Virus record (IMG/VR): IMGVR_UViG_3300017766_005733 | Coordinates: 32,001-96,000 of that record | Direction: 5' to 3' (one strand) | Length of the DNA stretch: 64,000 bases | Source of the DNA: a virus | Shown: positions 1 through 30,367 of the stretch, in pieces | Position numbering within the stretch: the stretch's first letter is position 1 | Layout: each line of letters starts with the position of its first letter | Translations under genes and position numbers: made by a program | The notes under the pieces: model-generated | Told to the model about the DNA's origin: nothing | The model's input: only the letters and a program-made list of their open reading frames with translations | Database searches by the model: none

Positions 1-569
1 TTGGAGCGATCGAGCGCCTGCGAGCGCGCCGCCTCGCCTTCGCTGTGCTCGCTGGCTTCTTGAGCCGGTGACGCGGGAGCGGCGGCCGGCGGGGAGCGAG
101 AGAAACCGCCGAAACCGGCATGGGTGCCGGGGTTCTCTGCGATCGCCTTCTTCAGGCCCTTGTCTTCGTTCTCGATCTGGGCGAGACCGGCGTCGATCTC
201 TTGGCTCCAGAGCACCGGCGCGTCGCGACCCCGCTTCGCCGCATACTCACGAGCCCGCAGCGCTTTCTCGATGCTGGAGCCGATGCCGACGGCCACGGCG
301 CTTTCCCCCAGCGTCTCCTTGAAGCGCTGGCGCTGGCGCACGACCTGAGGCAGGCCCCGCGGGGGAACGGAGACGACGCCTTCGGTGCCAGAAAGCACAA
401 CGACGGCGCCGCCAAGGCCCTGAGCCCAGAGCAGCCACGAGTCCTGAGTCGCCTTCTGCACCTGCTGATGCAGACGCTGCAGGCCCTCAGAATGCGAGGC
501 CGCCACCATCGGCGCCATGCGATGGCCCATGTGGCACTGCCAAGCAACGTACAGCTTCTGCTGGTTCAT
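1..569 (-). CDS. Putative head-associated protein with degenerate mCpol/GGDEF-like N-terminal domain (partial, runs off the left edge)
   Basis: Not in the ORF track. ATG at 569 with GAGG RBS and AATCTT 20 nt upstream. Translation MNQQKLYVAWQCHMGHRM...LGGAVVVLSGTEG...VAVGIG...ALRAREYAAKRG...GLKKA is open to the edge. Confidence 0.7.
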   Translation of the reverse strand, partial: MNQQKLYVAWQCHMGHRMAPMVAASHSEGLQRLHQQVQKATQDSWLLWAQGLGGAVVVLSGTEGVVSVPPRGLPQVVRQRQRFKETLGESAVAVGIGSSIEKALRAREYAAKRGRDAPVLWSQEIDAGLAQIENEDKGLKKAIAENPGTHAGFGGFSRSPPAAAPASPAQEASEHSEGEAARSQALDRS

Positions 570-588
570 GAAGACCTCTTAGACAACG

Positions 589-594
589 AAGATT
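589..594 (-). promoter_or_regulatory. Putative late promoter AATCTT
   Basis: 20 nt upstream of ATG 569; motif recurs before structural operons. Confidence 0.6.
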
Positions 595-603
595 GCGGCG
601 AGA

Positions 604-1839
604 TCAGCGCTTCAGCACCTGATCGGGATGCGTCAAGCCCATCTTCGCGCCAGCCTGATCGACGAGCCCCAAGGCGGTCTCAAGTGGCACCTTCTGGGCC
701 GAGGGCACGAAGCCTTCGTCAGAGGGCTCAGTGAACTTACCCGTCACCGCGCGATGAACGGCATCGTGCATCACCGTGTTCAGTTCCTTGTGGAAGACTT
801 CATCGGGGACGTGCAGCCCGATCTGCTCCGACAACTCGCGCTGCTTGTGTGCCGCCAGCCACTCCCAATGCACCGCCCGCTTGGCCTCGCGCATGCTGCG
901 CTGAACCCCCAGCTTGCCAATGCGTCGGCCCTCGCCGTAGATTTTGTTGAGTTCCGGATACACCAAGGCGTGGGAAAGTTCATGGATCTGACGCCACGCA
1001 TCCGTGTAGTCACGATCACCAAAATCACCACCCGACGACGGCGTGGGGTCGTACACCATCAGGTGCTTCGTGTTGTAGTTGCGGTTGGCGAGGTCGGGTT
1101 TGCCGTACTGGCCACCGGCGTAGTAGGTCTGAAAGCCGTGCTGAGCCACAAGATCACGAACCGCCGGCAGCTTGCCGCGGTAGTCGTAGTGAAACAGGTC
1201 GCTCTTGGTCCCCGGATGAATGTCGCCGTAGGGCTTGGCGTAGTGGGCGTACGTCGAAACGCCGACACCCGCCGCCTGCTCGTTGGCTGGCTTCGGGGGT
1301 GCGTCCATGTGCGGGTGCGCGCCCGGCTTCGGCGGCGCCGGGGGATTGTCGGCCTTCGCCAGCCCCGCCATGTGCATGCGCGTGTGGCCGTCATGCCACT
1401 CGTAGGCGTGGGGGTGCGGGTAGCGTCCCCGCGGGGCCTCTGACTTCGTCAGGGCCTGCTCCTGCGGCAGATGGCCGTCAGCGCCATGGCCACGGAAGCG
1501 ATAGACGCCCTTCTGGGCCTGCAGGCGCTGGGTGACTTCCGGCGGCACGGGGCCAATGGGCTCGATACCCAGAGCCTTGAGGTGCTGCGAGTACAGAGCG
1601 CCGTGGCGCTGGGCCTCTTCGATGGCGCCCGCGGCCTTGGCGGTCTTGGCGCCCATCAGGTGATGGGCGGCGGCGTTCAGGTGCTGGTCACGGACGTACT
1701 CGCCATGGGCCTGCTCTTCGGCGGCCTCGCGCGTCAGGCCGCGGCCGAACTCCAAAACCGCCGCCCGATGATCGAGTTCAGCGGCGTGACCGCCGTCCAT
1801 GATACGACGCCCCTGCCACATCCCATCATTCTTTGCCAT
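604..1839 (-). CDS. Putative head cargo protein with HExxH zincin metallopeptidase domain
   Basis: IHELSHAL motif; LTKSE and LAKAD linker motifs; start MAKNDG overlaps the upstream gene stop. Confidence 0.65.
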   Translation of the reverse strand: MAKNDGMWQGRRIMDGGHAAELDHRAAVLEFGRGLTREAAEEQAHGEYVRDQHLNAAAHHLMGAKTAKAAGAIEEAQRHGALYSQHLKALGIEPIGPVPPEVTQRLQAQKGVYRFRGHGADGHLPQEQALTKSEAPRGRYPHPHAYEWHDGHTRMHMAGLAKADNPPAPPKPGAHPHMDAPPKPANEQAAGVGVSTYAHYAKPYGDIHPGTKSDLFHYDYRGKLPAVRDLVAQHGFQTYYAGGQYGKPDLANRNYNTKHLMVYDPTPSSGGDFGDRDYTDAWRQIHELSHALVYPELNKIYGEGRRIGKLGVQRSMREAKRAVHWEWLAAHKQRELSEQIGLHVPDEVFHKELNTVMHDAVHRAVTGKFTEPSDEGFVPSAQKVPLETALGLVDQAGAKMGLTHPDQVLKR

Positions 1840-3283
1840 GATTTTGTCCCCGATAGACGGTGTCCAAGAAAGCGAAGATGGCGTCTTCCTTCCACTTGCC
1901 GCCAAAGGACAGCAGGTAGCTGGACTCCTTCTTCTCCAACTTCACGTCATTCGCCAGATCCCGGAAGCAGTAGCAGGCCTGAAACAGACCACCAGCCGAC
2001 AGCTGATGACCGTCACAGACGCCGCAGGCCGCCGTCAGCTGCTTCTCAGAGAGACGCAGCGACGGCAGCTTCATGGTAGCCTTGGGGGGCGGCGGCGGCT
2101 TGCGACCGCGCAGCTTCGGCGGCTGCACCTGCTGTCGACTCGGGGCATCGGGCTGAAGGGGGCCGGCCTGCTGCGTGGGTTTGTGCGCGGGCCCCGGCAT
2201 CTCAGCCGAGCCCTTTCCCGCCTTCTCCAGATCCGAGTGCAGCTGGTTGAAGTCGAAGTCGTGGGTGAAGATGCGGCCGTCGGGCAGGATCGTGTAGTAG
2301 TCCTCGGGCTTCTCGGCGTGCCACTTCGTGCCCTGACCCGGATGATGCTTACCGGTGTTCTCGCCGTTGACCATCAGCATCTTGTGATGCAGGCCATCGG
2401 AGTGAATCACGGATTCCTGCCCCAGATCACGAGCCAGCCCCTCGATCATCTTCGGGTTCTTGGGGTTGTAGACGATCAGGGAGTTCTCGGGGCGACCGTA
2501 GCTACCGATGGTGGGGTGAGCGTCTTCGCCGGCGTCGCGCAGGTACTGGACCGCCTGCTGGTTGCTGAGGTCCTTCGTCTTCGGGAAGAGGGGATTCTCG
2601 GCCGACATCAGGGTGTGGGGTGGCAGGGACTGCTCAGCCTTCTGCAGATCGAAGCCGACAAGTGACCGAACGGCATCCACCATCTTCTTTTCAAGAGTGG
2701 GGTAGCGGCGATCGGTCTCCATCGCCTGCAGCGTCAGCGACTTGTGGCCACCGGAAAGCGTCGCCTTGCCAACCTGCTGCCCCAAGCTGTTGACGGCATA
2801 CAGCAGCGTGAGTGGCGCCGGGCCGCTGACGTCGTATTCGTGCTCAAACGTGAACTCAGAGCGCTCAGACGCCATCTTGCGCAACGCCGCATGGGCGACG
2901 CGGGCGCCGACGAGGGCGTCAACGCTCTTTCCAAGGCGATACAGGTCGGCGTCCGACACGACCTCGGGCACGCGGCTGCGATCAAGGCCCATGACGACGC
3001 CAAGGGCCGCGGCGACGTGGAGCAGGGAGGCAGTGTCAAAGGAGTAGTCGACGTCGCCCAGCGTCATCGCGCCATGAAAGCCGGTGTCAGACTTCTGCAG
3101 CACCAGACGTCCGCCGACCCCCGGAATCTCGCCATCGTAGCCATGGCCGGCGAGGGCCAGCCAAGAATATAGGGCTCGTGGCACCATGGCGTTGTCAAGA
3201 TGCGGAAGGCGCTCCGCGGCCTTGCGAAGCGCCTTGGCGCCTTCAGGGCCGACGAGGGCCGTCAGGATCTGGTGTCGATTCAT
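1826..3283 (-). CDS. Multidomain putative head cargo protein with T3-type SAM lyase-like domain and C-terminal Cys cluster
   Basis: LMSAEN...YLRDAG...GSYGRPENSLIV...LARDLGQESVI...YYTILPDGRIF; six LxK[SAM] motifs; CGVC/CYC near the C-terminus. Confidence 0.65.
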   Translation of the reverse strand: MNRHQILTALVGPEGAKALRKAAERLPHLDNAMVPRALYSWLALAGHGYDGEIPGVGGRLVLQKSDTGFHGAMTLGDVDYSFDTASLLHVAAALGVVMGLDRSRVPEVVSDADLYRLGKSVDALVGARVAHAALRKMASERSEFTFEHEYDVSGPAPLTLLYAVNSLGQQVGKATLSGGHKSLTLQAMETDRRYPTLEKKMVDAVRSLVGFDLQKAEQSLPPHTLMSAENPLFPKTKDLSNQQAVQYLRDAGEDAHPTIGSYGRPENSLIVYNPKNPKMIEGLARDLGQESVIHSDGLHHKMLMVNGENTGKHHPGQGTKWHAEKPEDYYTILPDGRIFTHDFDFNQLHSDLEKAGKGSAEMPGPAHKPTQQAGPLQPDAPSRQQVQPPKLRGRKPPPPPKATMKLPSLRLSEKQLTAACGVCDGHQLSAGGLFQACYCFRDLANDVKLEKKESSYLLSFGGKWKEDAIFAFLDTVYRGQNHGKE

Positions 3284-3289
3284 GCCACA

Positions 3290-4180
3290 CTACCTCGGGC
3301 TGAAGGTCCCCTGCCGAGGGGCAGGAGCCTGTCGGGGATTGGGGGGCGGAGACAGGGCCTCGCCCTGCACCGGAGCCGCCTCCGACTCAAACAGATATTC
3401 CCGTTGAATAGCCAGACTCATAGGCATCCGCTGGACGGCGCTGCTGCCATCCACCATCTCGCCACGCGCCACGCGCACCTCGTGAATGAGATGCGTGACG
3501 TACCAGTAGGGGCGATAGAGGTAGCGAACGGCGCAGACCTGCCCCTTTTCGCCACTGATGGGCGCAAGCGGACGACGACCGCTGCCCCAGACGATGGCAC
3601 CACGATCAATAGCGAAGTCTACGCCAAGGTGGTAGCGGTTGCCGTCGCTGTCCACGAGATCGATGACGAACTCGATGGGGAAGCTGACGCGATCTCGTCC
3701 CGACACCGAGCACTCAAAGAGTTCCCAGTTGGTGACGAAGATGCCGGGCTCCATCAGGTACAGGCGATCGTACTTCGTGGCGTAGAACGGCGTCTGGGTT
3801 TCGTTGTAGAACCGCGGCGTCGTCAGCTGAGCCGAGCCCTCATTGACGAAGCCCGGCGCCACCTGACGATCCGACGACTGGTTGCCAGTGAAGACGGCAG
3901 TGATCTGGCCGCCCAGCGTGTAGATGAAGCCATGGCTGCAGCCAGCGTGATTGTCGTGCGACTTCCGGATGTCGGTGGTCGACGTCATGCCGATGGGGCA
4001 GCGCATAGCGCGATAGTGCAGGAAATGGATGCCATGACCGGAAATCGCGACGTCGAAGGCATCGGTATCGAAAGAAACGAGATCGCGTGGAAAATCCGAT
4101 ACCAGAGCCACCGCCGGAGGCGGCTCAGACAGTACCTGCCCCCCGATCACGGGGTAGATGCTGGGCGTTTCAGCGGCCAT
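3290..4180 (-). CDS. Head completion/neck-type virion protein
   Basis: Lies in the structural operon; beta-rich, with RAMRCP...C..G and YLYRPYWYV patterns like myovirus head-closure proteins. Confidence 0.55.
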   Translation of the reverse strand: MAAETPSIYPVIGGQVLSEPPPAVALVSDFPRDLVSFDTDAFDVAISGHGIHFLHYRAMRCPIGMTSTTDIRKSHDNHAGCSHGFIYTLGGQITAVFTGNQSSDRQVAPGFVNEGSAQLTTPRFYNETQTPFYATKYDRLYLMEPGIFVTNWELFECSVSGRDRVSFPIEFVIDLVDSDGNRYHLGVDFAIDRGAIVWGSGRRPLAPISGEKGQVCAVRYLYRPYWYVTHLIHEVRVARGEMVDGSSAVQRMPMSLAIQREYLFESEAAPVQGEALSPPPNPRQAPAPRQGTFSPR

Positions 4181-4183
4181 GGA

Positions 4184-4495
4184 TCAGTGCCCCTGACGCC
4201 GGCGCACGCTGTCGGTGATCGCCTCCCACTTCGGCAGCAGATGGCGGATGCAGTCCTCTTCCACGAACTCCGACTTGCTGAGTTCCGTCAGCTGGAGCCC
4301 CTTGGCCTTCTTCGTCGCCAGCCAGCGGGCGACGGCCTTGTGGCTGCCGACGCCAAGGGTCTCGGGGCCCTTGGTGCGCGCGGCGAGAACCATGTAGAGG
4401 CCGCCGACGGTCGAAACCTCATAGACGGCGTCGCTGCCGTCCGTGCCGATCTTCTTCTTCGACCGGATCTCGGATGCCGGGATAGTCGCTGTCAT
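4184..4495 (-). CDS. Small hypothetical virion protein
   Basis: GGAGG RBS, AATCTT upstream, LSKSE motif. Confidence 0.7.
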   Translation of the reverse strand: MTATIPASEIRSKKKIGTDGSDAVYEVSTVGGLYMVLAARTKGPETLGVGSHKAVARWLATKKAKGLQLTELSKSEFVEEDCIRHLLPKWEAITDSVRRRQGH

Positions 4496-4519
4496 GTGAT
4501 CCTCCGGATCGTCGCCCCA

Positions 4520-4525: not shown

Positions 4526-4528
4526 GCC

Positions 4529-6580
4529 TCAGACGCCGGCCCAGAGGCCATTGACGAAGCCACCGAGGTCGCCGCCGGCTTCTTTGATCTGGCGCAGACG
4601 CATGATTTCAGGTCGAGGATCGATGTCAAAGGTCCTCAGAGCCTCGGCCATCTTCTCTTCCGAGAGAGACGCCAGCCAAGACTTCATGCGAATGGCAACG
4701 GACGCCGGCAAATCCGGCATCAGCGCCAGCTTCTGCTTCGGCGCAAGGGTGTTGAAGGTCTCACCCTGCGGCGTCATGAAGCGAAGGTAGAAGGGCGTGA
4801 AAGATTCCTGATCGTGGGCGGGATCGAAGTGGATGCCGGCGAAGGCCGATCCATGATCAATCAAATGGATCTCGCCCTGCGGATTCATGAGCATGTTGTG
4901 GCCATGCCGATCGCCGTTTCCCGCCACCCAGTCAAGGACCGACCACTGCCAAAGGCGGCCGCGGAGGCGGTAGGACTCCATGGCCGACAGCACCCGCCCC
5001 GGATCCTGTTCTCGGATGTCGATCAGAGGCTTGAACTCTTCTGGCAGGAAGCTGATGGCGGCGTAGAGTTTGTCGTCGACCTTGACCCACTCAGTGCGCG
5101 CGAGGTCGCCCGCAAGCCCCCAAGAGCGCGCAAGCTGCCAGAAGGCGCCTTCACGGGCACTCGGCGGCGCCGGATCGTCTTGGATGCCCTTGATGGGGCC
5201 GGCGCGGCCACTGCCCGGCTTCATGTACCAAGTACCGGCGGGGGTGTCGATGAAGAAGGAGCCAGCGCTGTGGCGACCATCGAGATGCGCTGGACGCGCA
5301 GAGAAGACATTGTCAGTCAGCAGCTTGGCGACGTCTTCGCCGCTGGCGTGCATGGCCTCGATCTTCGACCTCGGCGTCACAGGCAGACTGCTCTTGGCCT
5401 CCGCCTTCGTCAAAGACTCCGACTTCACCAGCGGCATCATCTCAACCGCCGCCTTCAGGATGCCTCGGTTCTCTGCGGTGTCGGGCCAGTTGATGGCAGC
5501 CAAGGCCGTGGCCACGGGATCGGCGTCGTTGAGCCACGCCAGATGCCGCAGGCTCAACAGTGCCTCTTCGTCGTCACGGGCCTTCTCGCCCGTCAGCGAC
5601 AGCGCCGCGCGCCAATGTGCATAGACGCCGGGAGGCAACGGCAACAGGAAGTCGCGGGCAACCTCCGACTTGTCAAGGCGAGCCGTCAACAGGCGGTCGC
5701 GCAGTTCCTCGGAGATGCGAGGCGGCAGGCTACGCATCATCGCCAGATGCCGCAGCCCCTCGCCGTCATGGAACGCGGCGTCCATCCACTGCTCAGCGTC
5801 TTCCTCCGTCAACGGCGCCGACAGCGGCACGCGCTCCCACGCCCCCTGCGGCAGCACCAGTTGCTCCCAGAACTGACGCCAGACGTCTTCGGGCATCAGC
5901 GCCTGCGCATCAGGGGAAGCAGAGGCGATGAACAGCAACAGCGGATTGTCCTGCGCCGGCAAGTCCGCCGGCGAGCGCTGCGCCAGCTGACGGTAGATCG
6001 TGGGGATGAAGTCAAGGGGCACAGCGGGCATCAAGGCATCGAGCAGATGCTGGCCGGCTTCAGGTGACTCAATGGCGAGTCGCTTCAAAAGCGCATCGCG
6101 GCCCTCTTTCGTGCGCAGCTGCTGGGCATTGTGCTCCGTAGCCGCGGGGTGGCCGACGATGTCGAGAAGGCGCTCCATCTTGACGTGACGCACTACGTCA
6201 CACCACGCCTTGCCGTCGTACAGCTGGTGAACGATATGGGGCGCCGGCAGATCATCGATGACGCGATCGGCGATGGCCTGCGAGACGTGGCGGGGGCCAA
6301 ACCCCGGCATCGTGGTAGCCAGTGCCCGCTCTCTTGCGTCATCGGCGGCCAGAGCCCGGTAGGCGTCGCGCTCTTCTTCGGGCGCTGGCTGGGAGGGAAC
6401 CTCGGCCGATGCCTTGTGGTTGAGGAAGAACTCGTGTGCCGTGGCGCGGATGGCGTTAGACGCCGCGGCGTTGCCGAGGGCATCGACATTGGCGATGGCG
6501 GCGGCGATCTGGTCGCGGGTGGCGCTGGGGCTCAGGATCAGCCTCTCAGCGGCCTTCAGTGTTGCGATGACGTTGCTCAT
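4529..6580 (-). CDS. Putative head cargo protein with C-terminal PI3/PI4-kinase/HipA-like kinase domain
   Basis: WYMKPG...REGAFW...LDWVAGNGDRHGHNMLM...LIDHG; preceded by LDKSE/LVKSE/LTKAE. Confidence 0.75.
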   Translation of the reverse strand: MSNVIATLKAAERLILSPSATRDQIAAAIANVDALGNAAASNAIRATAHEFFLNHKASAEVPSQPAPEEERDAYRALAADDARERALATTMPGFGPRHVSQAIADRVIDDLPAPHIVHQLYDGKAWCDVVRHVKMERLLDIVGHPAATEHNAQQLRTKEGRDALLKRLAIESPEAGQHLLDALMPAVPLDFIPTIYRQLAQRSPADLPAQDNPLLLFIASASPDAQALMPEDVWRQFWEQLVLPQGAWERVPLSAPLTEEDAEQWMDAAFHDGEGLRHLAMMRSLPPRISEELRDRLLTARLDKSEVARDFLLPLPPGVYAHWRAALSLTGEKARDDEEALLSLRHLAWLNDADPVATALAAINWPDTAENRGILKAAVEMMPLVKSESLTKAEAKSSLPVTPRSKIEAMHASGEDVAKLLTDNVFSARPAHLDGRHSAGSFFIDTPAGTWYMKPGSGRAGPIKGIQDDPAPPSAREGAFWQLARSWGLAGDLARTEWVKVDDKLYAAISFLPEEFKPLIDIREQDPGRVLSAMESYRLRGRLWQWSVLDWVAGNGDRHGHNMLMNPQGEIHLIDHGSAFAGIHFDPAHDQESFTPFYLRFMTPQGETFNTLAPKQKLALMPDLPASVAIRMKSWLASLSEEKMAEALRTFDIDPRPEIMRLRQIKEAGGDLGGFVNGLWAGV

Positions 6581-14538: not shown

Positions 14539-14558
14539 GTGCTGGCTCCTTCCCTTCC

Positions 14559-17605: not shown

Positions 17606-17650
17606 GCCACACCCCATTACCCCAGAGGCATAGCATAGATTCAACCGCGT

Positions 17651-17692
17651 AAAAAAAGCAAGATGGAGGCCGTTACCAGCCTCCATCTTGCT
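17651..17692 (-). terminator. Rho-independent terminator after the major capsid gene
   Basis: GCAAGATGGAGGC / GCCTCCATCTTGC stem followed by T7 on the minus strand. Confidence 0.85.
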
Positions 17693-20028: not shown

Positions 20029-20067
20029 GGTGTAGTCCTCCTTGTTGAGTTTTGAGGAATACAACCA

Positions 20068-20980: not shown

Positions 20981-21175
20981 ATCGGATTTGGGCAGGTGTG
21001 GCGCCAGCCGCCGCTTGGCTTCGGCCACGAGTTCAAACAGGGGGCGATTGGCGTCCATGATGACCTCATGGTAGGGTGTGCCGATCAGTCGCACGCGCAC
21101 GCCCACCGTGCGATGACCGATGGCGATCTTGCCGTCTTCAGCCAGTGGCACCACGATATATTTGCCGTCAACCAT
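20942..21175 (-). CDS. Small hypothetical protein
   Basis: Overlaps the GGDEF gene stop; AAGGA RBS. Confidence 0.5.
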   Translation of the reverse strand: MVDGKYIVVPLAEDGKIAIGHRTVGVRVRLIGTPYHEVIMDANRPLFELVAEAKRRLAPHLPKSDLLTGFAVRDLTR

Positions 21176-22415: not shown

Positions 22416-22418
22416 GGC

Positions 22419-25400
22419 TCAGACCTTATCCTTCGGACGCAAGATGTCAAGAGAGGTCTGGGGCGCAACACCGAGCGACTGCAAAGCACGCAGAAGTTCG
22501 GCCTTGGAAAGAGTCGCCAGCCCCTCGCCGGCAGACTTCTCAAGGGTGCTCTTGCTGCACTTCCAGCGCTTGAGGGCCGCCCCCTTCGGAGTCAGCTTGC
22601 CGTCCTTCGATGTGGGTCCCTTGACACCGCTCATCCGCGCACAAAAACTCTTGCGCCTCTTGGCGGCTTTGGAGCCGGGCTCGACCTTGCCCGTCACAGG
22701 CCTCTTGAGGTTGCTGCCCTCTTCGCGATTGACCTTCTCGCGGTAGGAATCGCTCAGACCCCCGCTGCGACTGTGACGATTCTTGTTGTAGCCGTGGAAA
22801 GGCTTGTCTGCCTTGTCGAGGGCGTCGTCGAGATCCTTGGAGACTTCAGTCTCAGCGATCTTTTCTCCAGTCTTTTCGTCGTAGATGCACAGGTGGCTGC
22901 CTTCTTCGTGATGGCAGTGCTCGACGATGTAGGCCCCAATGTGGACATGATCTGTTCCACACTCAGAGCACTCCTCATCGTCGTGCGCGTCTTCGTTGTC
23001 AGTCTTCTTCATCTTCCGAGTGGGGCCTGAGGTGGAAGCCGACTTCATCCCCGACCAATCGCTTCGCTGCCAGTCCTCGGGTTCATCCGAGTGCAGTTCC
23101 TGTCCCGCGGGCGCAAAGTCCTTGCCTTCAAACAGTCCGCGATCAGACCACGGCGCCGGCGTATCCGTCGTTGCGCCGGGTTTCGTCCAAGCGTCGCGCA
23201 GCGCATAGAAGTCACGCATGACGCCATCGACGGCTCGATCGCCCAGCCCCATCCCCTCCATCTCCGCTCGCAGTTTTGGGCCATTCAGATTCCGAAGCCA
23301 TTCGACGGCATCGGGATGGACCGGGGATGACTTCGGGTCCATCATCGCGCGGCCGGCAACCCTGCCCTTGCTTTGAGCCGCGGGACGCGCCTTTTCAAAC
23401 TCGTACACCTTCAGGTAATGGGGCTTGCGGAGTTCCCGCGGCTGCAGCCCCGACCCCGGCTCTTGATGAAGCTGAGCCTCCAGCGACTGCGTTCCTTCTT
23501 GCGCTGTGTTGCGGAAGGTGTGGCCGTGGTCGATCAGCTTGAGGCTCAGCTTACCGTCGTCGGCGCGCGAGAACAGGTAGTTGTTGCCGTGGCGATCGTC
23601 GTTGCCAAGGATGTAGTTCATGGCCGCCAACTTGTGCAGTTCGCCGGCATCGCCGAGGTGCATCAGCGTCTTCAGGTGTGCTGCACTGCCGGAGTTGTGA
23701 TGCTCCGGGTTCTTGACCATCTCCTGCATGCTCATTTCCCAGCCGCCGGGATGGTTGGCCATCGCCGTCAGCGGGACGTACTCGCCGAGACCAAAGACGT
23801 CGCGCGCCAGATTGTGGTACGCAGTTTCGCGAGCCCCCATGTGCGGATACGACCACTCGTGGCCATGCTTCACGAGCACCAACCGCTTGCCGTCGGGATG
23901 CGGAATCCACATCTGCGTTGGCGACGTCAGCGATTCTGTGGCGTGAACAGGCTTGGCCTTCAGGTTCCGGCTCAGATCCACGCCGTCAATCAGCGCCTTC
24001 TGCTCTGGCGTGTTGTTGATGCGATCGCTGCCATCGGCAGCCGTGATCTTGACGGCGGCGATGCGCTTTGGGTTTTTCTCGACCAGATCCGCTTCCTGAG
24101 CCAATCCCAGCGAATGCCGCGACGAGTCAGCGGGGCCTTCACCCCTCGTCGGCGCGGCTTCAGTAGGGTTTCCGTTGGCCTTCTTCAGCTGAGCCGCGGC
24201 GTTGCGAACCTCGACCGACAGCTTCTCGGCCTTGAGGATCGGGTCCTCGTTCTCTGAGCCGTGCATGAGCAGCGGCAGCAGCTGCGAGTAGTAGCGGAAC
24301 GAGGCCTCTTCTTCGCCGTGGTGATTGATCCAGTGACGAACAAGGGCGGCGGCAAGACGCGGATCGATGAGCGGACCCGACCTTTCGGACTTCTTGAAGC
24401 CAAAGCGCAGATTGGCCTGCGGCGCCGGCGATTCGGGCAGCGGCGTCGAGCGGGCTGGAACCGTCTGTTGCGATTCCTTGGGGTCCTGCAGGAGGCGCTG
24501 AACTTCGTCAAACAGAGGACGGTGGCTGGCCGCCTGATTGTGAGCGACGTTCGCTCGCTTGTGCTCCATCAAGCGCTCGTGCGGAGCGATCGAAAGCCAG
24601 TGCCCCCAGAAAGCCGGGAAAACCGCCTGTTCCGGGTTGTCCTTGAAGTAGGATCCAAACTCCGGATGCTGAAGCATCAGCTTTACCGACGGATGATTGC
24701 GGTAATACCAGCGATCCATCGCCGACAGAAGTTCGCTATTCTTCGGGTTCCAAAGAATGTCATCGCGAACGTGGTGGATCGAGTTCTTGTCTTTGTCCTT
24801 GTCAAGACCAAAGAGATGGCGGCTGAAGTGAGTGTCGGGGACGAAGGAGTTGCCGGCCCCCAGCATCGCGTAGGCGAAGCGCGCGGTCTTGGGCGCCAGC
24901 CCCGGAATGTGCAGACCCTGAAAAGCACCCGGATCGGGCTTGCCCTTATCGAGCGCTCGCTTGCGGGAAGCCTCCCACAACTCCGCCTTGCCCTTGTTGC
25001 CCATCAACTCAGCCACCGCCGAACGACCGTCAACGCCGTGGCGAGCCACGAGATCCTTCATGTGCTGGTGAGCATCTGCGTAGCGCGCCATGTTGGCGAA
25101 CTTGTTGTGCGGCAGCATGAAGGAAGTGCGCTCGCCGGCGAGGCGTCCCGTCTGCGTGGAATCTCGCTGATTCGTCACGAGGTTGCCGATGTGCTGCGTG
25201 AAGTAGTCGCGCGACGACTGCGGCCAAGCCTGCGGCTGGTCGCGCGACATCCAGTCCTGCTTGACCTCCGGAGACCCGAAGCGTGGATCGCGGATGTCCA
25301 TGCCCTTGTCCTTGAAGGTGTCCAGCAGGTAGCTGTACATCATTTCATGAACGGGCACGGGTGTGTTGGGGCTCAACTGCGAGAAGGCCACCGACGTCGC

Positions 25401-27128
25401 CAGCACCGCCTCTGGCAGCCGCCCCTGCTTCAGGGCCTGATTCAGCTTGATCCAGTTGCCAACAGCGTAGTCGTGCTGGCGGCGAACCTCAGGTGAGTTC
25501 CAAACCTGACGGAACTTCTCGCCTGAATCACTATCGGCATCCGGGTTGTAGAGGCTGAAGTGGCCGTTCTTGGTCTTCAACTGGCCTGTGTGCTCGTTGA
25601 ACGTCATCTCCGGACCCGAAAGGCCCGTGGGCTTGACGCCTTCGCCGCGGATCGTAAACGCAGGAGCCTCAGGAGCCTTGGGCGCTTTAGCGGCGGGGGC
25701 CTTCGGGGCGGGCGCGGCCTTCTCTGGAGCAGAAGCCTTCTCTGGAGCAGCAGCCTTCGGCTCCGCGGCCTTGCGGGCCTTTGCCAGCGGCTCAGCCTTC
25801 CGCAGCTTCGCGCGGATGTCGGTGGCGAGGTCGGTGAAGTGATCGAGGTAGTTGTCGCTGACCTCCGGAAGCTGAGACTTCAGAAAGTCGCGCATGCTGC
25901 CCTTTGACTCATGGTATTCCTGAGCCAACTTCACCAGCTTCTTCGCCAGTTCCTCGCGCTGCAGAGCCGCGCCGCCCATGAGGCTAGAGGGCGAGCCGGT
26001 GGCCATGCCCGCGTCCATTGCCTTCTTCATGCCCGTCTCCTGTTCACTCTTGCGCGCCTTCGACTCAGTGATGTCGATGGCGTCCATGGTCTTGAGTCCG
26101 ACCTTCTTGGCCGCAAAATGACGGTGATTGCCGTCGACGATGTCCCAGCCCCCGGCTCCGGAGCGGCGAACGACGGCCGGCGGCAGCTTGTCGTGCTGCG
26201 CCATCTGAACGTACATCGCATAGCGATCGTAGTTCTTGATGGGGTTGAGGTTCTGGGCGCTGTCGACGTCGATCGTGATCTTCTTGCCGCCGCCAAAGTG
26301 CTGCTTCAGGGCCTTCTCGTACGCGCCATCCCAGCGCTTGCGATCGGGAGTGCCGGCACGGGGGATAACGACGCCGTCCTCGGACTCCCACTGCTTTGGG
26401 GGCTTGGGGGGCTTCGGCAACACCGGCTTCTTGGCAGCCGGCTTCGGCTCCTTGGAGGCCTTCAGTGCCTTCCAGAGGGTCTGCTGCTCAGCCGCATCCT
26501 GCTCGATCTCGCCCGAAGAGCCGAGGCGGCCGTAGAGCGGGTGCTCTTTCTTCACCAACTCGGCGATCGGCTTCTTGGGCTTCTTCTCGTAGCCCTCGGG
26601 GGCGTTGGGGTCGACCACGAGGTCGCTGTCGCAGGTCTTGTTGCAGGGCTTGATGGTCAGCGCCACGCGACGCGCGATCGTGCGCTTGAGTTTGTTGCCA
26701 TCGCGCTCCAGCGTGGAGCCGTCGATCGAGAACCGGACAAGGATCTGTTCCTTGTTCTTCACCGCGTCACGGACCTGAGCAGCCAGCCCCTGAGCCGAGA
26801 GGTGACCGGCGCCGTCATAGAGCCGCACCATGCCGTAGATGAAGGGCACCTTGACCTTTTTCCAGAACATCTTCTGGCGGTCGTCGTCGGCGTCCGACTC
26901 CTGCATGATCTTCTTGGCGAAAACGATCTTGCCGACGATGTCCTGCGACGTAGCGCCGGTGGACTCGTCGTTGCGGTGCTCGTAGTTGGCGAGCCCACGC
27001 CCCTCGATCATCTCACTGATGTCACAGCCCTCGATGTCGAGGACTTCACCACTGGAATCCCATACCTGACTGGCAAAAATGCCATCAAGAATCATTCCAT
27101 TGGAACCATCAATGATGTCGTTGTTCAT
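22419..27128 (-). CDS. Prohead protease fused to ParB-like, HhH-glycosylase-like, kinase-like and DUF6321-like domains (1569 aa)
   Basis: N-terminus GIFASQVWDSSGE...NYEH...FSIDG (phage maturation protease); IVDGNHR; IPGLAPKTARF...PDTHFSR; GNDDRHGNNYL...IDHG; RRKSFCARM...ALKRWKC. Sits between portal/MuF and scaffold. Confidence 0.8.
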   Translation of the reverse strand: MNNDIIDGSNGMILDGIFASQVWDSSGEVLDIEGCDISEMIEGRGLANYEHRNDESTGATSQDIVGKIVFAKKIMQESDADDDRQKMFWKKVKVPFIYGMVRLYDGAGHLSAQGLAAQVRDAVKNKEQILVRFSIDGSTLERDGNKLKRTIARRVALTIKPCNKTCDSDLVVDPNAPEGYEKKPKKPIAELVKKEHPLYGRLGSSGEIEQDAAEQQTLWKALKASKEPKPAAKKPVLPKPPKPPKQWESEDGVVIPRAGTPDRKRWDGAYEKALKQHFGGGKKITIDVDSAQNLNPIKNYDRYAMYVQMAQHDKLPPAVVRRSGAGGWDIVDGNHRHFAAKKVGLKTMDAIDITESKARKSEQETGMKKAMDAGMATGSPSSLMGGAALQREELAKKLVKLAQEYHESKGSMRDFLKSQLPEVSDNYLDHFTDLATDIRAKLRKAEPLAKARKAAEPKAAAPEKASAPEKAAPAPKAPAAKAPKAPEAPAFTIRGEGVKPTGLSGPEMTFNEHTGQLKTKNGHFSLYNPDADSDSGEKFRQVWNSPEVRRQHDYAVGNWIKLNQALKQGRLPEAVLATSVAFSQLSPNTPVPVHEMMYSYLLDTFKDKGMDIRDPRFGSPEVKQDWMSRDQPQAWPQSSRDYFTQHIGNLVTNQRDSTQTGRLAGERTSFMLPHNKFANMARYADAHQHMKDLVARHGVDGRSAVAELMGNKGKAELWEASRKRALDKGKPDPGAFQGLHIPGLAPKTARFAYAMLGAGNSFVPDTHFSRHLFGLDKDKDKNSIHHVRDDILWNPKNSELLSAMDRWYYRNHPSVKLMLQHPEFGSYFKDNPEQAVFPAFWGHWLSIAPHERLMEHKRANVAHNQAASHRPLFDEVQRLLQDPKESQQTVPARSTPLPESPAPQANLRFGFKKSERSGPLIDPRLAAALVRHWINHHGEEEASFRYYSQLLPLLMHGSENEDPILKAEKLSVEVRNAAAQLKKANGNPTEAAPTRGEGPADSSRHSLGLAQEADLVEKNPKRIAAVKITAADGSDRINNTPEQKALIDGVDLSRNLKAKPVHATESLTSPTQMWIPHPDGKRLVLVKHGHEWSYPHMGARETAYHNLARDVFGLGEYVPLTAMANHPGGWEMSMQEMVKNPEHHNSGSAAHLKTLMHLGDAGELHKLAAMNYILGNDDRHGNNYLFSRADDGKLSLKLIDHGHTFRNTAQEGTQSLEAQLHQEPGSGLQPRELRKPHYLKVYEFEKARPAAQSKGRVAGRAMMDPKSSPVHPDAVEWLRNLNGPKLRAEMEGMGLGDRAVDGVMRDFYALRDAWTKPGATTDTPAPWSDRGLFEGKDFAPAGQELHSDEPEDWQRSDWSGMKSASTSGPTRKMKKTDNEDAHDDEECSECGTDHVHIGAYIVEHCHHEEGSHLCIYDEKTGEKIAETEVSKDLDDALDKADKPFHGYNKNRHSRSGGLSDSYREKVNREEGSNLKRPVTGKVEPGSKAAKRRKSFCARMSGVKGPTSKDGKLTPKGAALKRWKCSKSTLEKSAGEGLATLSKAELLRALQSLGVAPQTSLDILRPKDKV

Positions 27129-27161
27129 GGACTACGTCCTCGGAAAGCAGTTGACGGGCGA

Positions 27162-27167
27162 AAGATT
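27162..27167 (-). promoter_or_regulatory. Putative late promoter AATCTT
   Basis: 34 nt upstream of the protease ATG 27128. Confidence 0.6.
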
Positions 27168-27209
27168 CCTCTTGACGCCCCCCTTGCGATGGCTGTAGCA
27201 TGCGAGGTC

Positions 27210-27425
27210 ATGGCAACCCAACTCACAAAACCCGTCGTCCGCGAAACCAACGTCATCATCAACGGGCGACCGCTGGTGGTGACCATCAGCCCCAACGGTA
27301 CCATCTCGTTCCGAGAAAAGGGTAGCCGAGGCCCGGTCTCGGAGTTCTCAACGACCTTGGCGGCCTGCTACCACATGGCCGTCAAGCAGGAGGTCTTGGC
27401 GACTAAGCGCGCCAAGGCCAGCTAA
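27210..27425 (+). CDS. Small hypothetical protein (71 aa) on the opposite strand
   Basis: GAGG RBS; TTGACG-N18-TAGCAT upstream; fills the gap between two minus-strand genes. Confidence 0.6.
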   Translation: MATQLTKPVVRETNVIINGRPLVVTISPNGTISFREKGSRGPVSEFSTTLAACYHMAVKQEVLATKRAKAS

Positions 27426-28163
27426 TCAGCCGCGACCTCGCTGGGTTGCGTATTCGTTGTGACCCCGGCCAACGAAGCGAACCATCCCAGCGGCGTCAAA
27501 GCCATAGCCGGGCATCAGTGTGGCGAGACTGCAGCGGCAATGGGGATGTAGCCCGTTGACCTTGGGATTGTTCTCGCCTCGCTTGTGGTAGCCGGTCCCG
27601 ACCTCGGACATCTTCCAGACACGCGGCGTGACGCCATCAGGCATCAGGTGCAGTCGCGTGCATTCCTTGCACCGAAGTCCATCGCGGACCACGACGAAGA
27701 AGACCATCGCGTCATCGATGCCCGCCTGCAGGTTCAGCATCGTGATGCCCTCCAGAGTGCCCGTGGCGCGGCTGCGCTGGGTCTCCGTGTCGGCAATACG
27801 CATCACGTCGTTCGTGACCTTGGACCAGACGTCCACCAGCTTGCCGGCAAGGGCACCGGAACTCGGCTGCCCCTCCTGCTCCGCCGACAAAACATGGTGA
27901 AGGACTTCGGCCTTTGCGCGCTCCCTCGCTGAATCGAGGTAGGAGCCGGCGATGTTGACGACACCCAAGAGCGTCTTGGGGCTCATCTTGGCGCCGTCAT
28001 CTGCGGCCGCGGCGGTAGCAATGCCCGCCAGCGTCAAGTCCGGGCGATCGGACGTGACCGTCAGCGTCTTGTCGACCAGCCGCACCCCCAGAAACCGCGC
28101 CTTGATGCGTTCAAAAAGGCTGTCGATGGCTGCGTGGATGCGGCTGATGGTCTGCTTCTTCAC
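27426..28163 (-). CDS. MuF-like head morphogenesis protein
   Basis: RIADTE...CKEC...LHPHCRC; immediately after the portal. Confidence 0.8.
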   Translation of the reverse strand: MKKQTISRIHAAIDSLFERIKARFLGVRLVDKTLTVTSDRPDLTLAGIATAAAADDGAKMSPKTLLGVVNIAGSYLDSARERAKAEVLHHVLSAEQEGQPSSGALAGKLVDVWSKVTNDVMRIADTETQRSRATGTLEGITMLNLQAGIDDAMVFFVVVRDGLRCKECTRLHLMPDGVTPRVWKMSEVGTGYHKRGENNPKVNGLHPHCRCSLATLMPGYGFDAAGMVRFVGRGHNEYATQRGRG

Positions 28164-28165
28164 GG

Positions 28166-30367
28166 CTACTCCCCGATGTCTTCATCGGCTGATAGCGCGC
28201 GGCCGATCTCGGCCAGAGCGGCGCGAGAGTCATCCTCCCACGTCTTCTGGAAGCGATCGACGATGGCTCGATGCTTGGCCAGCAGCTTGCGCTTGGACGG
28301 CGACAGCGTGGCTTCCGACTTTAGCATCTCCGAAGCCTGATCGAGGCCGCGCGTCAGGTCACCGCCAGCCTGCTCAGCCGCCTGCTGAGACTGCTGCTGC
28401 GAGGACTCGGCGGTCGCCGCCTGCTGGGAGGCCTCTGCCTGCTGAGCCTCACCCTTGCCCGGCTGCGGACCCCCACCGCCGCCACCACCTCCACCGCCAC
28501 CTCCGCCATCCTGCGGCGGCTGCCCACCCTGCTGCTGGGCCGCCTGCTCCTGCATCTGCTGCTGTTGCTGCATCTGCTGAACCTGCATCTGCAGCTGCTG
28601 CCACTGGAACCAGAAGGGGTCGCGAACGTAAGCCAGCTTGGGGTCCTTGGCCGCACCCTTTTGACCGAAGAAGTGCTCCTTGATCTGGCCCACCGTCAGG
28701 TACTTGTCGACGACCGCCTGCCACTGGGCGTTGAAGGGGAAGTCGCCGCCAAGTTCCTCGGGGATCTCTTCCTTCTCGACCTTGTTCAGGACCTCGTTGT
28801 AGGTCATGTGCAGCGGCGCGTCCTGCTGCAGTCGGATCGATTCCTTCTCGGCCGTCTCAGCATCCAAGCCCATCAACTGGATTTCGCACTTGCCAACGAG
28901 GTTGGGCGCGATCAGGGGCAGAAGCTGGGCGTTGATGAAGTCCTGCCACGCCAAGAGCAGTGGGCGCAAGCCGACGTCGCGGTGAGCAATCATCAGGTAC
29001 TCCTGATTGCTCTCCGACAGCGCCTGATTGTTGGTACCGCGGCTGAGGTGGGCGTAGCCGGGTAGTTCTTCCGGCGACATCTGGAAGGCCGACAAGATGA
29101 TGCGGGCCGTCATGTCGCTCAGGTACTGGAACTCCATGTCGCGCTGACTGGCATCCGTCGAAACCCACTCAATGTTTTCCTCGACGCCAACGCCCAGCAC
29201 CGGCACGCGCCAGCTGTTCTGCACGCTGTTGATGGCGGCGTTGAACTGCTGGCGGATGTCGTTGATCATCGAGTCATCGACGTCATCGGACTTGATGATG
29301 AGGATGCCGCGGCTGGCGCGGCCGCTCTGGAAGTACAGCTTGTTGTGGGTCGTGATGTTGATATGCGTCGTGACAGCGGCAATGACCGTGTCGAGGGGCG
29401 ACAACGGATAGCCGCGGAACTCAACGTCGGCGACGGGGTAGAAGTTGTAGACGAGGCATTCCTCGGCAGTGAACGACTGTCGCGGCTGCCCTTCCAGAAC
29501 CTGAATCCAAGCGATGTCTTCCGGCGTCACCGTGTTGTTGGGTTCGTGCTCCAGCTTCTTGCGCTTGATGCGCTCAAGCAGCCTCGCCGCCGTCTCACGC
29601 AACTCCACCGCCATCTGGTTCATTGGCACGGAACGGTAGATGGTGCCGGCGTCGATGGGACGGAAGGAGTGGAACTCGCGACGTCCCGTGTGGACGTTGT
29701 AGACCCAAATGATTTCGGTGGCCACGCGCCCCAGCACCACCGCATTCTTCGTCGAGACCGTCAGGTACTGGCTGAAGGTCATCTGCTCTTGATCCGACCA
29801 GCCCTTCGTCTGACCGCAAGATCGCAGCAGTTCGGACGCTCGCTTGATCTCTTCGTCAAGAGCCCTCTGCTCTTCGGGCTCCAGTGACTCCTCGACTCCC
29901 GGAATCGGGACAATCCCAAAGCCCACGCCGTGGCGATCACGACGAGGACGACCAAAGGAGCCGATGTGGTTGCCGCGGGTGTTGACGATCGAGGCAACGA
30001 GGCTGTCCTGAATGGCAATCCGCTTCAGGATGCTGTCGGGGATGCCACGCAGCTTCTGCTGCCACAGCCCCTGATTGCTGCCGACCTGACTCGGGTCCAC
30101 CTCAAAGGCCAGACGCTCGATGGACGTCTCGCCGCCGTTGAGGAGGTTCATCAGGCTCTTGGCAAGACGCTGATGGCCAACGACGGGCCCGGCGTCGGGG
30201 ACCGTCGGGAGAGAGTCCAACTTCTCGACCGTCAGCACAGGCTGCGGCATCGATGGGTCGGTGAAACGCACCTGCCGCCGACTCTTGCTGAGCCCCTCGG
30301 TCTTTGGCGTCGCGGACTTGATGAGGGCCTGAAAGTACGCGGAAGTGGGATTACTGGGAGTTGTCAC
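28166..30367 (-). CDS. Portal protein
   Basis: FRPIDAGTI...GYPLSPLD...YFQSG...RDMEFQ...FQMSPEELPG...GLRPLL; downstream of terminase. Confidence 0.88.
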   Translation of the reverse strand: MTTPSNPTSAYFQALIKSATPKTEGLSKSRRQVRFTDPSMPQPVLTVEKLDSLPTVPDAGPVVGHQRLAKSLMNLLNGGETSIERLAFEVDPSQVGSNQGLWQQKLRGIPDSILKRIAIQDSLVASIVNTRGNHIGSFGRPRRDRHGVGFGIVPIPGVEESLEPEEQRALDEEIKRASELLRSCGQTKGWSDQEQMTFSQYLTVSTKNAVVLGRVATEIIWVYNVHTGRREFHSFRPIDAGTIYRSVPMNQMAVELRETAARLLERIKRKKLEHEPNNTVTPEDIAWIQVLEGQPRQSFTAEECLVYNFYPVADVEFRGYPLSPLDTVIAAVTTHINITTHNKLYFQSGRASRGILIIKSDDVDDSMINDIRQQFNAAINSVQNSWRVPVLGVGVEENIEWVSTDASQRDMEFQYLSDMTARIILSAFQMSPEELPGYAHLSRGTNNQALSESNQEYLMIAHRDVGLRPLLLAWQDFINAQLLPLIAPNLVGKCEIQLMGLDAETAEKESIRLQQDAPLHMTYNEVLNKVEKEEIPEELGGDFPFNAQWQAVVDKYLTVGQIKEHFFGQKGAAKDPKLAYVRDPFWFQWQQLQMQVQQMQQQQQMQEQAAQQQGGQPPQDGGGGGGGGGGGGGPQPGKGEAQQAEASQQAATAESSQQQSQQAAEQAGGDLTRGLDQASEMLKSEATLSPSKRKLLAKHRAIVDRFQKTWEDDSRAALAEIGRALSADEDIGE

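Follow-up and report, generated by a model that had tools for sequence, protein, structure and literature searches.

A lysine-centred motif shared by capsid, scaffold, portal and multi-enzyme proteins in the head block of an Mx1-like phage: a candidate signal for the release of packaged enzymes

The IMG/VR virus record IMGVR_UViG_3300017766_005733 comprises 131,625 bp at an estimated completeness of 80%, and the window considered here, bases 32001-96000 of that record, is a 64,000-nucleotide stretch that carries the head and neck block of a contractile-tailed phage resembling Myxococcus phage Mx1, with head genes of the SPO1 type. Our subject is a short lysine-centred motif, [LIMF]-x-K-[SAMG], which an initial annotation made from the sequence alone had noticed in the capsid, scaffold, portal and several long multi-enzyme proteins, and had read as the mark at which a phage protease cuts packaged polyproteins into free effectors for injection. 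The window has a guanine-plus-cytosine (G+C) content of about 62%, and minus-strand genes fill it from position 1 to approximately 38,900; all coordinates below refer to that strand. With its Mx1 counterpart the major capsid protein (MCP) shares 57% identity, and with those of SPO1-type phages (Herelleviridae) and a few other myoviruses 22-27% (tblastn, 71-99% of the MCP covered); 64 related loci in IMG/VR encode MCPs of 53-69% identity, and G+C ranges from 37 to 62% across the five genomes examined, which are complete or nearly so. A synteny comparison finds a gene order common to the window and Mx1, where genes for a helicase, sigma factor, terminase, portal, long 'putative prohead protease', nucleotide cyclase, scaffold, MCP, long 'NUDIX hydrolase' and kinase are followed by the tail sheath gene, downstream of the matching block. 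The head genes of the window run portal, 245-amino-acid (aa) protein, protease fusion, GGDEF protein, 152-aa protein, scaffold and MCP, and multi-enzyme genes are placed between the portal and MCP genes and the neck-gene homologues phrog_772, a 283-aa neck-region protein, and phrog_1004.

The MCP (469 aa, 17717-19126; phrog_752, 3.7e-48) reads LVK14↓ALEAGS near its N-terminus, the arrow here and below marking the predicted cut (for this maturation site, LVK14↓AL, 19079-19093). L-x-K-[A/T] is present in all 62 aligned MCPs, most of which read L-x-K-[A/T]-[L/M]-E-A-G, the Mx1 MCP has LRK↓AMEAG, and the SPO1 MCP reads LNK23↓ALEAGH, so that the motif is shared with the SPO1-type capsid N-terminus, as had been suggested. 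The scaffold (293 aa as the longest open reading frame (ORF), from a TTG, 19183-20064) contains seven sites, IAKSE twice, LAKAA, LKKSL, MRKAE, LSKSE and LTKSD, where 1.65 are expected, and when 45 scaffolds are aligned these sites form islands of conservation in sequences that otherwise diverge strongly. The portal (733 aa, 28166-30367; Pfam Phage_portal, 3.7e-14) has sites at K17, K28, K70, K359 and K683, comprising LIKSA, LSKSR, LAKSL and MLKSE together with an internal IIKSD that the initial list lacked; every instance which that list quoted from the MCP, scaffold, portal and 1491-aa protein is present. The K70 site, which precedes the folded core, is kept in five of six aligned portals, and the K683 site, some 50 residues from the C-terminus, in four of the six, a fifth (relative G005) having VMEK↓A nearby. 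K359 (29285-29299) belongs to an [I/V]-I-K-S-[D/T] stretch that the window shares with Mx1 and with relatives G001 and G002, and its position falls within the Pfam portal domain; it is likely a false positive of the cut-site rule, and as such would serve as an internal negative control.

In SPO1 itself, the 244-aa scaffold contains 11 hydrophobic-x-K↓S sites, the portal has two sites close to its N-terminus, and LDK169↓SLEAGY follows the protease domain of the protease. Since its MCP, scaffold, portal and protease all carry the signal, the signal is ancestral to this head type. Two small proteins complete the structural set: a 245-aa minor head protein with weak likeness to MuF and portal C-termini (27426-28163; phrog_2662, 2.7e-8; phrog_115, 0.003) contains none of the motifs against 0.67 expected, and a 296-aa virion structural protein (3290-4180; phrog_1004, 5.3e-9), the product of a conserved neck-region gene that recurs in 24 loci and in each of the four complete relatives (G001, G002, G003 and G005), has one and is probably not cargo.

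To count the motif we called proteins of at least 80 aa across the 131.6-kb genome and derived the expected number of matches from each protein's own composition. The 13 proteins of the head block (7,826 aa) contain 54 matches against 23.1 expected (Poisson P 2.9e-8), and the remaining 31,565 aa of the genome contain 57 against 62.4, so the claimed excess in the head module over the rest of the genome is real. A sharper form, [LIMFV]-x-K-[SA]-[ED], was first suggested by reading the hits and then compared with a sequence logo built from the scaffolds of 44 relatives with the window excluded, in which L (5.3-fold) and M (3.3-fold) are enriched at -2 and E (3.1-fold) at +2. The sharper motif occurs seven times in MCP, scaffold and portal together against 0.48 expected (five against 0.23 in the scaffold), 17 times against 1.97 in ten candidate cargo proteins (P 4.5e-11), and four times against 6.12 outside both groups. 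That the motif derived independently from the relatives' scaffolds is the one enriched in the cargo proteins of the window supports the reading set out below. Four control patterns, with R for K, with the order reversed, with T, V, N or Q after the lysine, or with K or R one position further on, are flat in the cargo set. Within-protein shuffles of that set give 19.0 ± 4.2 matches to the broader motif where 40 are observed and 2.0 ± 1.4 to the sharper one where 17 are observed, and neither observed count was reached in 20,000 shuffles. An ungrouped scan flags eight of 127 called proteins at P<0.01, namely the scaffold, the portal, the 1569-, 1491-, 683-, 485- and 433-aa proteins, and one 155-aa ORF, the last by one match alone. 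Counts of the broader motif are not enriched in the 415-aa (2 vs 1.42), 296-aa (1 vs 0.15) and 245-aa proteins or the MCP (2 vs 1.06). These computations support the view that the motif is a selected signal shared across the head module.

The 1569-aa protein (22419-27128) is a fusion of a head protease to candidate cargo, in which the protease is followed by a ParB_N-like insert, an MCP-like peptide, a helical region, a PI3/PI4-kinase-like segment, a Cys/His cluster and DUF6321. Pfam places DUF6321 at residues 1452-1522 (3.9e-12) and, below the curated cut-offs, PI3_PI4_kinase at 1163-1209 and ParB_N at 294-351; it returns no match in residues 1-250. An AlphaFold2 (AF2) model of residues 1-174 (26607-27128), made from 40 sequences, has a mean predicted local distance difference test score (pLDDT) of 85.1, and its residues 5-161 find T4 gp21 (5jbl_B) as best structural match (Z 10.5, root-mean-square deviation 2.6, 126 aligned residues). 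Among the matches listed after gp21, the next 37 are herpesvirus proteases (Z 5.1-8.7), followed by unrelated MCE-domain proteins at Z ≤4.8. Foldseek alone gave a weak signal (best E 3.9e-3), and a profile of the protease against PDB chains found at best an unrelated domain of unknown function (E 0.91); H51 and S134 are invariant in the 40 sequences. The modelling supports the assignment of residues 1-174 as a capsid-maturation protease of the T4 gp21/herpesvirus assemblin fold, bearing out the initial annotation's call of a head protease and placing it at the head of a cargo chain.

Two elements of note lie beyond the protease domain. Immediately after the domain, LVK193↓KE (26544-26558) has an invariant K193 and an E195 conserved in at least 90% of the 40 sequences, and lies in a segment of low pLDDT, while relatives read F-[FK]-K-[SA]-E at approximately residues 173-207; it is a likely candidate site of self-release. 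Further on, residues 362-419 (25872-26045) begin MKK369↓AMDAG and match MCP residues 7-62 with the pattern K↓A-[L/M]-[E/D]-A-G ... G-G-x-A-L-x-x-E-x-L; the motif at K369 is kept in eight of eight aligned orthologues. This MCP-like peptide is found in exactly two proteins, MCP and protease, in each of five genomes, it is present in the SPO1 protease too, and the match of PHROG 1028, 'head maturation protease', falls on it. Such a copy of the MCP N-arm is probably a docking element and may be the loading handle that would bring the protease and its attached cargo into the prohead.

The fusion protein contains 13 sites of the broader motif against 6.14 expected and five of the sharper one against 0.66 (K444, K913, K966, K1439 and K1542). 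Its motif lysines are better conserved than its other lysines (0.73 over nine sites vs 0.32 over 80, P 0.0009), and K369 and K444 retain the whole motif in eight of eight orthologues. Several other sites are confined to inserts specific to the window, which implies that they arrive together with the inserted module. Homologues of the fusion in relatives measure 411 to 1424 aa, and 42 distinct ones contain the sharper motif 62 times against 14.8 expected.

As a separate observation, several distant relatives (L025, L042, L035, L026, L029, L060 and others), in which a Nudix gene neighbours the protease gene, have a small protease gene, 411-800 aa, on the strand opposite to that of the MCP gene. 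The 3' end of this gene touches or overlaps a free-standing Nudix gene of 130 aa in L025, L029 and L042, so that Nudix is tied to the head protease even when unfused.

The remaining candidate cargo is spread over several genes. The 1491-aa polyvalent protein (6577-11052) consists of Nudix, ART-PolyVal, an unassigned stretch, a helical domain, a second unassigned stretch, GNAT and an HExxH region, with Pfam matches to NUDIX (4.4e-20, residues 10-124), ART-PolyVal PF18760 (171-305, E 4.2e-16, 60.4 bits vs a cut-off of 31.2) and GNAT (4.9e-5, 962-1017), and with HELFH at residue 1287. Nine broader sites against 4.12 expected punctuate it, the eight listed at the outset (IMKSE, LAKGS, LEKGL, LKKSD, LHKMA, LRKMA, LLKAE and LKKMD) and a further one, IAK633↓SG; its sharp sites include K313, K662 and K1068. 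In the 683-aa protein (4529-6580), an N-terminal part is followed by LDK304↓SE, LVK386↓SE and LTK392↓AE, three sharp sites against 0.17 expected, and then by a PI3/PI4-kinase-like domain (PI3_PI4_kinase, 5.7e-7). The 485-aa protein (1826-3283) holds an inserted SAM-lyase-like module at approximately residues 216-354, between LQK215↓AE and LEK354↓AG, whose S-AdoMet_lyase match is weak (15.3 bits, and 24.7 in the G002 homologue, at a cut-off of 28). The 433-aa protein, numbered from the longest ORF (604-1905), matches nothing in Pfam or PHROGs and comprises an N-terminal module, LTK154↓SE, LAK184↓AD and an HExxH module whose HELSH at 308 is conserved in the G001 and G002 homologues. In the 415-aa protein (21168-22415), FKK173↓SA and LRK187↓SS lie between an N-terminal domain and a GGDEF cyclase domain (3.3e-11, 244-344). 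A 103-aa protein with LSK74↓SE (4184-4495) has homologues in Mx1, G001 and G002. Finally, positions 1-569 hold the first 189 codons of a gene for a 611-aa protein, which runs off the left edge of the window; residues 347-526 of that protein are a second GNAT module, 36.6% identical to residues 893-1070 of the 1491-aa protein (E 1.8e-22), which keeps its flanking lysines without the following Ser or Ala (LEK364↓K, MEK531↓E). The motif had been claimed for the 683-, 485-, 433- and 415-aa proteins alike; the first three are enriched, whereas the 415-aa protein is not by count.

The list of effectors proposed for these chains survives in part. Nudix, ART-PolyVal, GNAT, the PI3/PI4-kinase-like domain of the 683-aa protein, GGDEF and DUF6321 all score above their Pfam cut-offs, whereas ParB_N and the second kinase-like match, both in the 1569-aa protein, fall below theirs, the SAM lyase is weak, and the peptidases appear solely as HExxH patterns. 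Pfam and PHROG searches with ten cut-out modules recovered no family for the supposed lysozyme, glycosylase, papain-like or HExxH parts, the latter in the 1491- and 433-aa proteins matching no peptidase family, nor for the stretches that flank the insert of the 485-aa protein or the N-terminal part of the 683-aa one; their sole matches, S-AdoMet_lyase and Phage_YunG-like (18 bits), are far below the cut-offs.

Comparison between relatives shows that modules are shuffled, fused or split, often at the motif, though not always. The Mx1 1479-aa protein contains the Nudix, helical, unassigned and GNAT modules of the window in a different order; in G001 it is the Nudix polyprotein that contains the ParB-like module found here in the 1569-aa protein; and in G002 a kinase module is fused to the Nudix polyprotein, beginning eight residues past LGK1285↓AD. 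The 485-aa protein equals a shorter protein of Mx1, G001 and G002 (its flanks, 1-137 and 358-481, match single proteins there) plus an insert between K136 or K215 and K354, which matches the N-termini of other proteins in at least 15 relatives. At K154, the 433-aa protein joins the counterpart of a free-standing 140-aa G001 protein (residues 30-156) to its HExxH module, residues 164-424 being 62-67% identical to the interior of longer proteins in G001 and G002, of 797 and 978 aa. The GGDEF protein is encoded by two genes in Mx1 and locus L021, the break falling at query residues 162-208, around K173/K187, and ten aligned free-standing Nudix proteins of distant relatives (130-142 aa) stop some 15 residues short of LAK154↓HD in the window and LSK1063↓SW in Mx1. 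GNAT is bracketed by sites in five proteins of four phages (K909/K1068 in the window, K137/K309 in Mx1, K290/K413 in G002, and K275/K392 and K333/K445 in G005). The DUF6321 module (residues 1437-1527, between K1439 and K1531; 22812-23090) recurs in a 1012-aa G005 protein (L095:3712-6747) at 68% identity, in a phage of 37% G+C; the capsid proteins of that phage and of the 62%-G+C window phage share only about 57% identity, and the closeness of the module suggests its recent horizontal exchange as a single piece of cargo.

A junction test places these cases on a common footing: of 47 junction clusters, 15 have a broader-motif site no more than 12 aa away against 7.3 ± 2.5 at random (P 0.005), and for the sharper motif 7 of 42 against 3.0 (P 0.027), in agreement with the predicted swapping of modules at the motif. 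One of 33 sites falls in a Pfam-matched stretch, such stretches making up 17.4% of residues (P 0.014). An AF2 model of residues 1-1200 of the 1491-aa protein, from a thin and partly stretched alignment of 40 sequences, gives confident domains for Nudix (1-146), the helical module (509-650) and GNAT (911-1046), and K154, K662 and K909 lie outside them by 8, 12 and 2 residues and K1068 by 22. The ART domain, residues 320-458 and residues 667-910 are modelled without confidence. The proposition that the motif sits at domain boundaries holds for many sites, then, but not for portal K359 or for K633, which lies inside the confident helical domain, and the structural overlay is informative for the sites near well-modelled domains, the rest of the chain being too poorly modelled.

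The pattern recurs in part elsewhere. The scaffold is enriched in all four complete relatives (4 vs 0.30, 3 vs 0.27, 6 vs 0.24 and 4 vs 0.25). The enriched large proteins of G002 are a 1577-aa Nudix-GNAT-kinase protein (5 vs 0.45) and 978-, 441- and 341-aa proteins, and those of G005 measure 990, 1012, 1272 and 617 aa and include GNAT, kinase-like, DUF6321 and GP88 domains.

Taken together, these observations are best accommodated by a reading we regard as probable, if by no means assured: that a gp21-type protease cuts a common lysine signal in the capsid protein, the scaffold, the portal and a set of packaged multi-enzyme chains, which are thereby released as separate enzymes. The computations show how the signal is enriched, conserved and placed, the fold of the protease and the shuffling of modules; the bond that is cut, the protease as the cutter, and the packaging and injection of the enzymes are what we infer. 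Most likely the protease would recognise a hydrophobic residue at P3, any residue at P2, lysine at P1, Ser or Ala at P1' and Glu or Asp at P2', cutting after the lysine. In the prohead, it would shorten the capsid protein by a cut after K14, cleave the scaffold at five to seven sites, trim the portal at both ends and detach itself from the long C-terminal extension that it carries. The same signal would have been recruited as a linker between Nudix, ART, GNAT, kinase-like, GGDEF, ParB-like, DUF6321, HExxH and SAM-lyase-like modules, so that a few long chains could be loaded and small separate enzymes released to leave with the DNA; cargo fused to the protease would be carried into the prohead along with it. 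A cut with lysine at P1 would fit the geometry of the SPN3US head protease gp245, with which the hydrophobic P3 and the Ser at P1' agree.

Glutamate at P1 (K-[S/A]-E↓ as P3-P1) was considered because gp21 and gp245 cut after glutamate, and is judged less likely, if unproven: in our own reading, a glutamate-centred alignment leaves MCP LVKALE and scaffold IAKSE in disagreement at three positions, and only the lysine-centred alignment reconciles MCP LVK↓ALE with scaffold IAK↓SE. It also brings the hydrophobic residue to P3 and Ser to P1', in line with SPN3US, T4 and the herpesviruses.

Several findings weigh against this proposal. The background statement that SPO1- and Twort-type capsid proteins are cut after this lysine found no confirmation in a literature search, which turned up no paper stating a cut after Lys in SPO1-, Twort- or HK97-type heads; the cultured members for which such a cut is reported are of the A511/Twort type, whose capsid proteins reportedly lose about 23 residues. 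Outside the scaffold, the effect in large proteins recurs in two of the four complete relatives, G002 and G005, and is weak in G001 (22 sites genome-wide vs 14.3 expected) and G003 (27 vs 19.0). Of the protease-fusion homologues, 14 of 42, that of Mx1 (1239 aa) included, have no match to the sharper motif, the Mx1 variants at aligned positions being K↓T, K↓M and K↓N. The junction test is moderate, with 32% of junctions near a site against 16% expected, and several well-supported junctions have H, K, D or E at P1' (K154, K193, and K364 and K531 of the 611-aa protein), so that the rule is less strict than the written motif. Some sites lie inside folds, namely K359 of the portal and K633 of the 1491-aa protein. 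The AF2 model of this last protein is poor over approximately 60% of its length (mean pLDDT 53.3) and permits no judgement on K313, K319 and K458, and one of ten sites falls within its confident residues, which is not significantly below expectation. Lastly, the first motif sites of the candidate cargo lie at residues 21-313, at no uniform short distance from the start, and translations read by eye reveal no N-terminal targeting sequence shared among the cargo proteins that would account for the entry into the prohead of those not fused to the protease.

Among the alternatives, an unlikely one, yet that which best survives, is that the motif in the multi-enzyme proteins is a binding or docking signal that keeps them attached to the scaffold, the protease or the inside of the capsid wall, the chains staying full-length. 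The motif is indeed common to proteins that would meet inside the prohead, the MCP-like peptide of the protease speaks for sequence mimicry used for interactions in this system, and an N4-type virion RNA polymerase is described as packaged unprocessed in the available part of PMC5512222. A docking signal need not sit at module borders, however, and docking offers no explanation for free-standing homologues that end, and split genes that break, at the motif; scaffolds, moreover, must exit the head, and 5 to 11 sites per scaffold suit degradation better.

The recurrence of the GNAT module with its flanking segments in three of three copies, together with the weak enrichment in G001 and G003, would also be expected if only the canonical head proteins were processed and the motif in the enzymes were a passenger linker copied during shuffling, the enzymes themselves being perhaps located outside the capsid. 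We consider this improbable, as unrelated modules (Nudix, kinase, DUF6321, ParB-like, SAM-lyase-like and GGDEF) are all edged by the motif, its lysine is conserved while the linkers around it diverge in sequence and length, and the enrichment recurs in phages of 37% to 62% G+C.

The HELFH and HELSH elements of the 1491- and 433-aa proteins raise the further prospect that the multi-enzyme chains are cut by their own HExxH metallopeptidase modules, in the capsid or after injection, with the head protease limited to capsid, scaffold and portal; self-processing by such metallopeptidases was proposed by Iyer et al. (PMC5512222, in the part available). This appears quite improbable here: the signal is equally found in classical head-protease substrates and in the SPO1 MCP, scaffold, portal and protease, the 1569-, 683-, 485- and 415-aa proteins carry it without HExxH, and no peptidase family matched the modules in question.

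Chance, or a compositional effect of linkers rich in Lys, Ser, Ala and Glu, would draw on the high lysine content of head-block proteins, above that of most others, and on the slightly higher proline, alanine and glycine content near sites (0.289 vs 0.259), and is refuted by expectations taken from each protein's own composition, by the flat Arg-for-Lys, reversed and altered-P1'/P2' controls and by 20,000 shuffles that never match the observed counts.

Returning to proteolytic release at the lysine signal, a broader version can be put forward as a tentative possibility, rather doubtful at present. The lysine code would then be a universal joint: any module flanked by it could be inserted into any head-bound chain, cut free and injected, with joints traded horizontally between phages of very different hosts and the MCP N-arm mimic acting as the loading handle. 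If this were true, head proteolysis, not embedded metallopeptidases, would process the polyvalent proteins of this lineage.

Other genes of the block were noted in passing. Directly downstream of the capsid gene lies one for a 496-aa homing endonuclease with a helix-turn-helix and a nuclease domain (16196-17686; phrog_3339, E 7e-77), whose third-position G+C of 0.64 is below that of its neighbours. Two putative nucleotide-metabolism genes (13810-14592 and 15041-15637) occupy part of the structural block, with the capsid gene on one side and the neck genes on the other, at a place where Mx1 is annotated with a thymidylate synthase and a deoxynucleoside monophosphate (dNMP) kinase; a window protein of this pair contains RHHVGFSPSQRSTRY and looks ThyX-like by eye. 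To the left of the window, among tail-like genes, a 672-aa protein with 12% Lys (G000:C1:13633-15651) has seven sites of the broader motif against 3.68 expected and two of the sharper one, and is a candidate tape measure or a further processed protein.

The observation with which the initial annotation began is confirmed, and its interpretation is plausible and has been strengthened, with cutting, packaging and injection as predicted steps. Mx1 grows on Myxococcus xanthus DK1050 (PMC10720576), which places the prediction within reach of ordinary virion proteomics. If the code is real, it would make the mature virion proteome predictable for a large and almost wholly uncultured phage group, and would give a testable answer to how polyvalent proteins are dismantled. 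It would also single out about twenty enzymes, candidates for early action, that could be tested against host defences and that include Nudix, ART, GNAT, kinase-like, GGDEF and SAM-lyase-like proteins, and a cleavable joint combined with a loading handle could offer a simple route for loading chosen proteins into phage heads.

Several known systems resemble the proposed one, head proteases among them. T4 gp21 acts on head-internal proteins and the Alt ADP-ribosyltransferase and cuts after glutamate at L/I-x-E. The window resembles T4 in the gp21 fold of its protease (Z 10.5 to 5jbl_B), in one motif running across capsid, scaffold, portal and candidate packaged enzymes, and in an ADP-ribosyltransferase among the cargo. 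T4, however, has Glu at P1, where the conserved residue here is Lys; it loses short N-terminal targeting peptides from single-domain proteins, whereas the sites here lie between the modules of long chains; and in the window the protease itself carries approximately 1,400 residues of cargo. Herpesvirus proteases cleave V/L/I-x-A↓S, and UL26-type proteins are protease-scaffold fusions: an N-terminal assemblin-fold protease on a longer chain is carried into the procapsid and releases itself, with a hydrophobic P3 and Ser at P1' as proposed here, but the extension there is the scaffold, and here it is made up of enzyme-like modules whose content varies, the chains measuring 411-1569 aa among relatives.

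SPO1 shares with the window a homologous MCP, the LxK↓ALEAG N-terminus, a scaffold rich in hydrophobic-x-K↓S and a protease followed by an MCP-like peptide. It differs in that its protease measures 256 aa without cargo and its scaffold sites are mostly K↓S-hydrophobic-E rather than K↓S-E. In addition, the neck genes gp6.3 and gp6.4 are adjacent in SPO1, whereas in the window the phrog_772 and phrog_1004 proteins are separated by the Nudix polyprotein, the kinase and the 103-aa gene, a correspondence with the two SPO1 genes drawn from shared PHROG annotation names ('tail fiber protein' for phrog_772, 'virion structural protein' for phrog_1004). The main text of the Mx1 genome announcement says nothing on head proteolysis (PMC10720576).

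The glutamate-P1 code of T4, phiKZ and SPN3US is not what is found here, the core being hydrophobic-x-K-[S/A]. In SPN3US, the head protease processes capsid, portal and internal proteins, and motif-based cutting is established for phiKZ-type phages; gp245 recognises A-x-E at P3-P1, prefers Ser at P1' and also cuts itself, 13 of 14 mapped cuts remove N-terminal propeptides, and approximately 80% of head proteins stay uncut, while T4 propeptides have a targeting role (all from the available part of PMC10052503). As in phiKZ, 201phi2-1 and SPN3US (gp175/gp245), many candidate head-internal proteins of the window bear the motif assigned to its protease, with Ser at P1'; in contrast to SPN3US as described in that part, the sites here are internal, between enzyme domains, and Lys-centred.

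Polyvalent proteins, in which conflict enzymes are strung together in phage virion proteins and whose processing has been assigned to embedded metallopeptidases (Iyer et al. 2017, PMC5512222, in the part available), are matched by at least two unrelated effector-type domains per chain (the 1491-aa protein combines NUDIX, ART-PolyVal and GNAT, the 1569-aa protein ParB_N-like, kinase-like and DUF6321 domains), by the hallmark ART-PolyVal, a Pfam family that takes its name from them, by ParB-like elements and HExxH patterns and by a late, virion-gene neighbourhood, whereas no head-protease motif at the joints is described in the available part of that study, in which the term 'prohead protease' is used once, outside that part. 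The same source describes the Dar proteins of phage P1 (DarA, DdrB) as anti-restriction proteins that are proteolytically processed and incorporated into the head, DdrB having a ParB-like domain; they belong to a separate phage lineage, and the available text describes no junction motif shared among them.

The principles of motif-directed cutting by head proteases, known from T4, SPN3US and phiKZ, and of polyvalent proteins, known from the work of Iyer and colleagues, are therefore already established. What is new in the present case is a Lys-centred code of the SPO1 type, its placement at the internal joints of multi-enzyme chains, beyond N-terminal propeptides, a head protease that carries up to approximately 1,400 residues of exchangeable cargo, and modules that are traded together with their joints.

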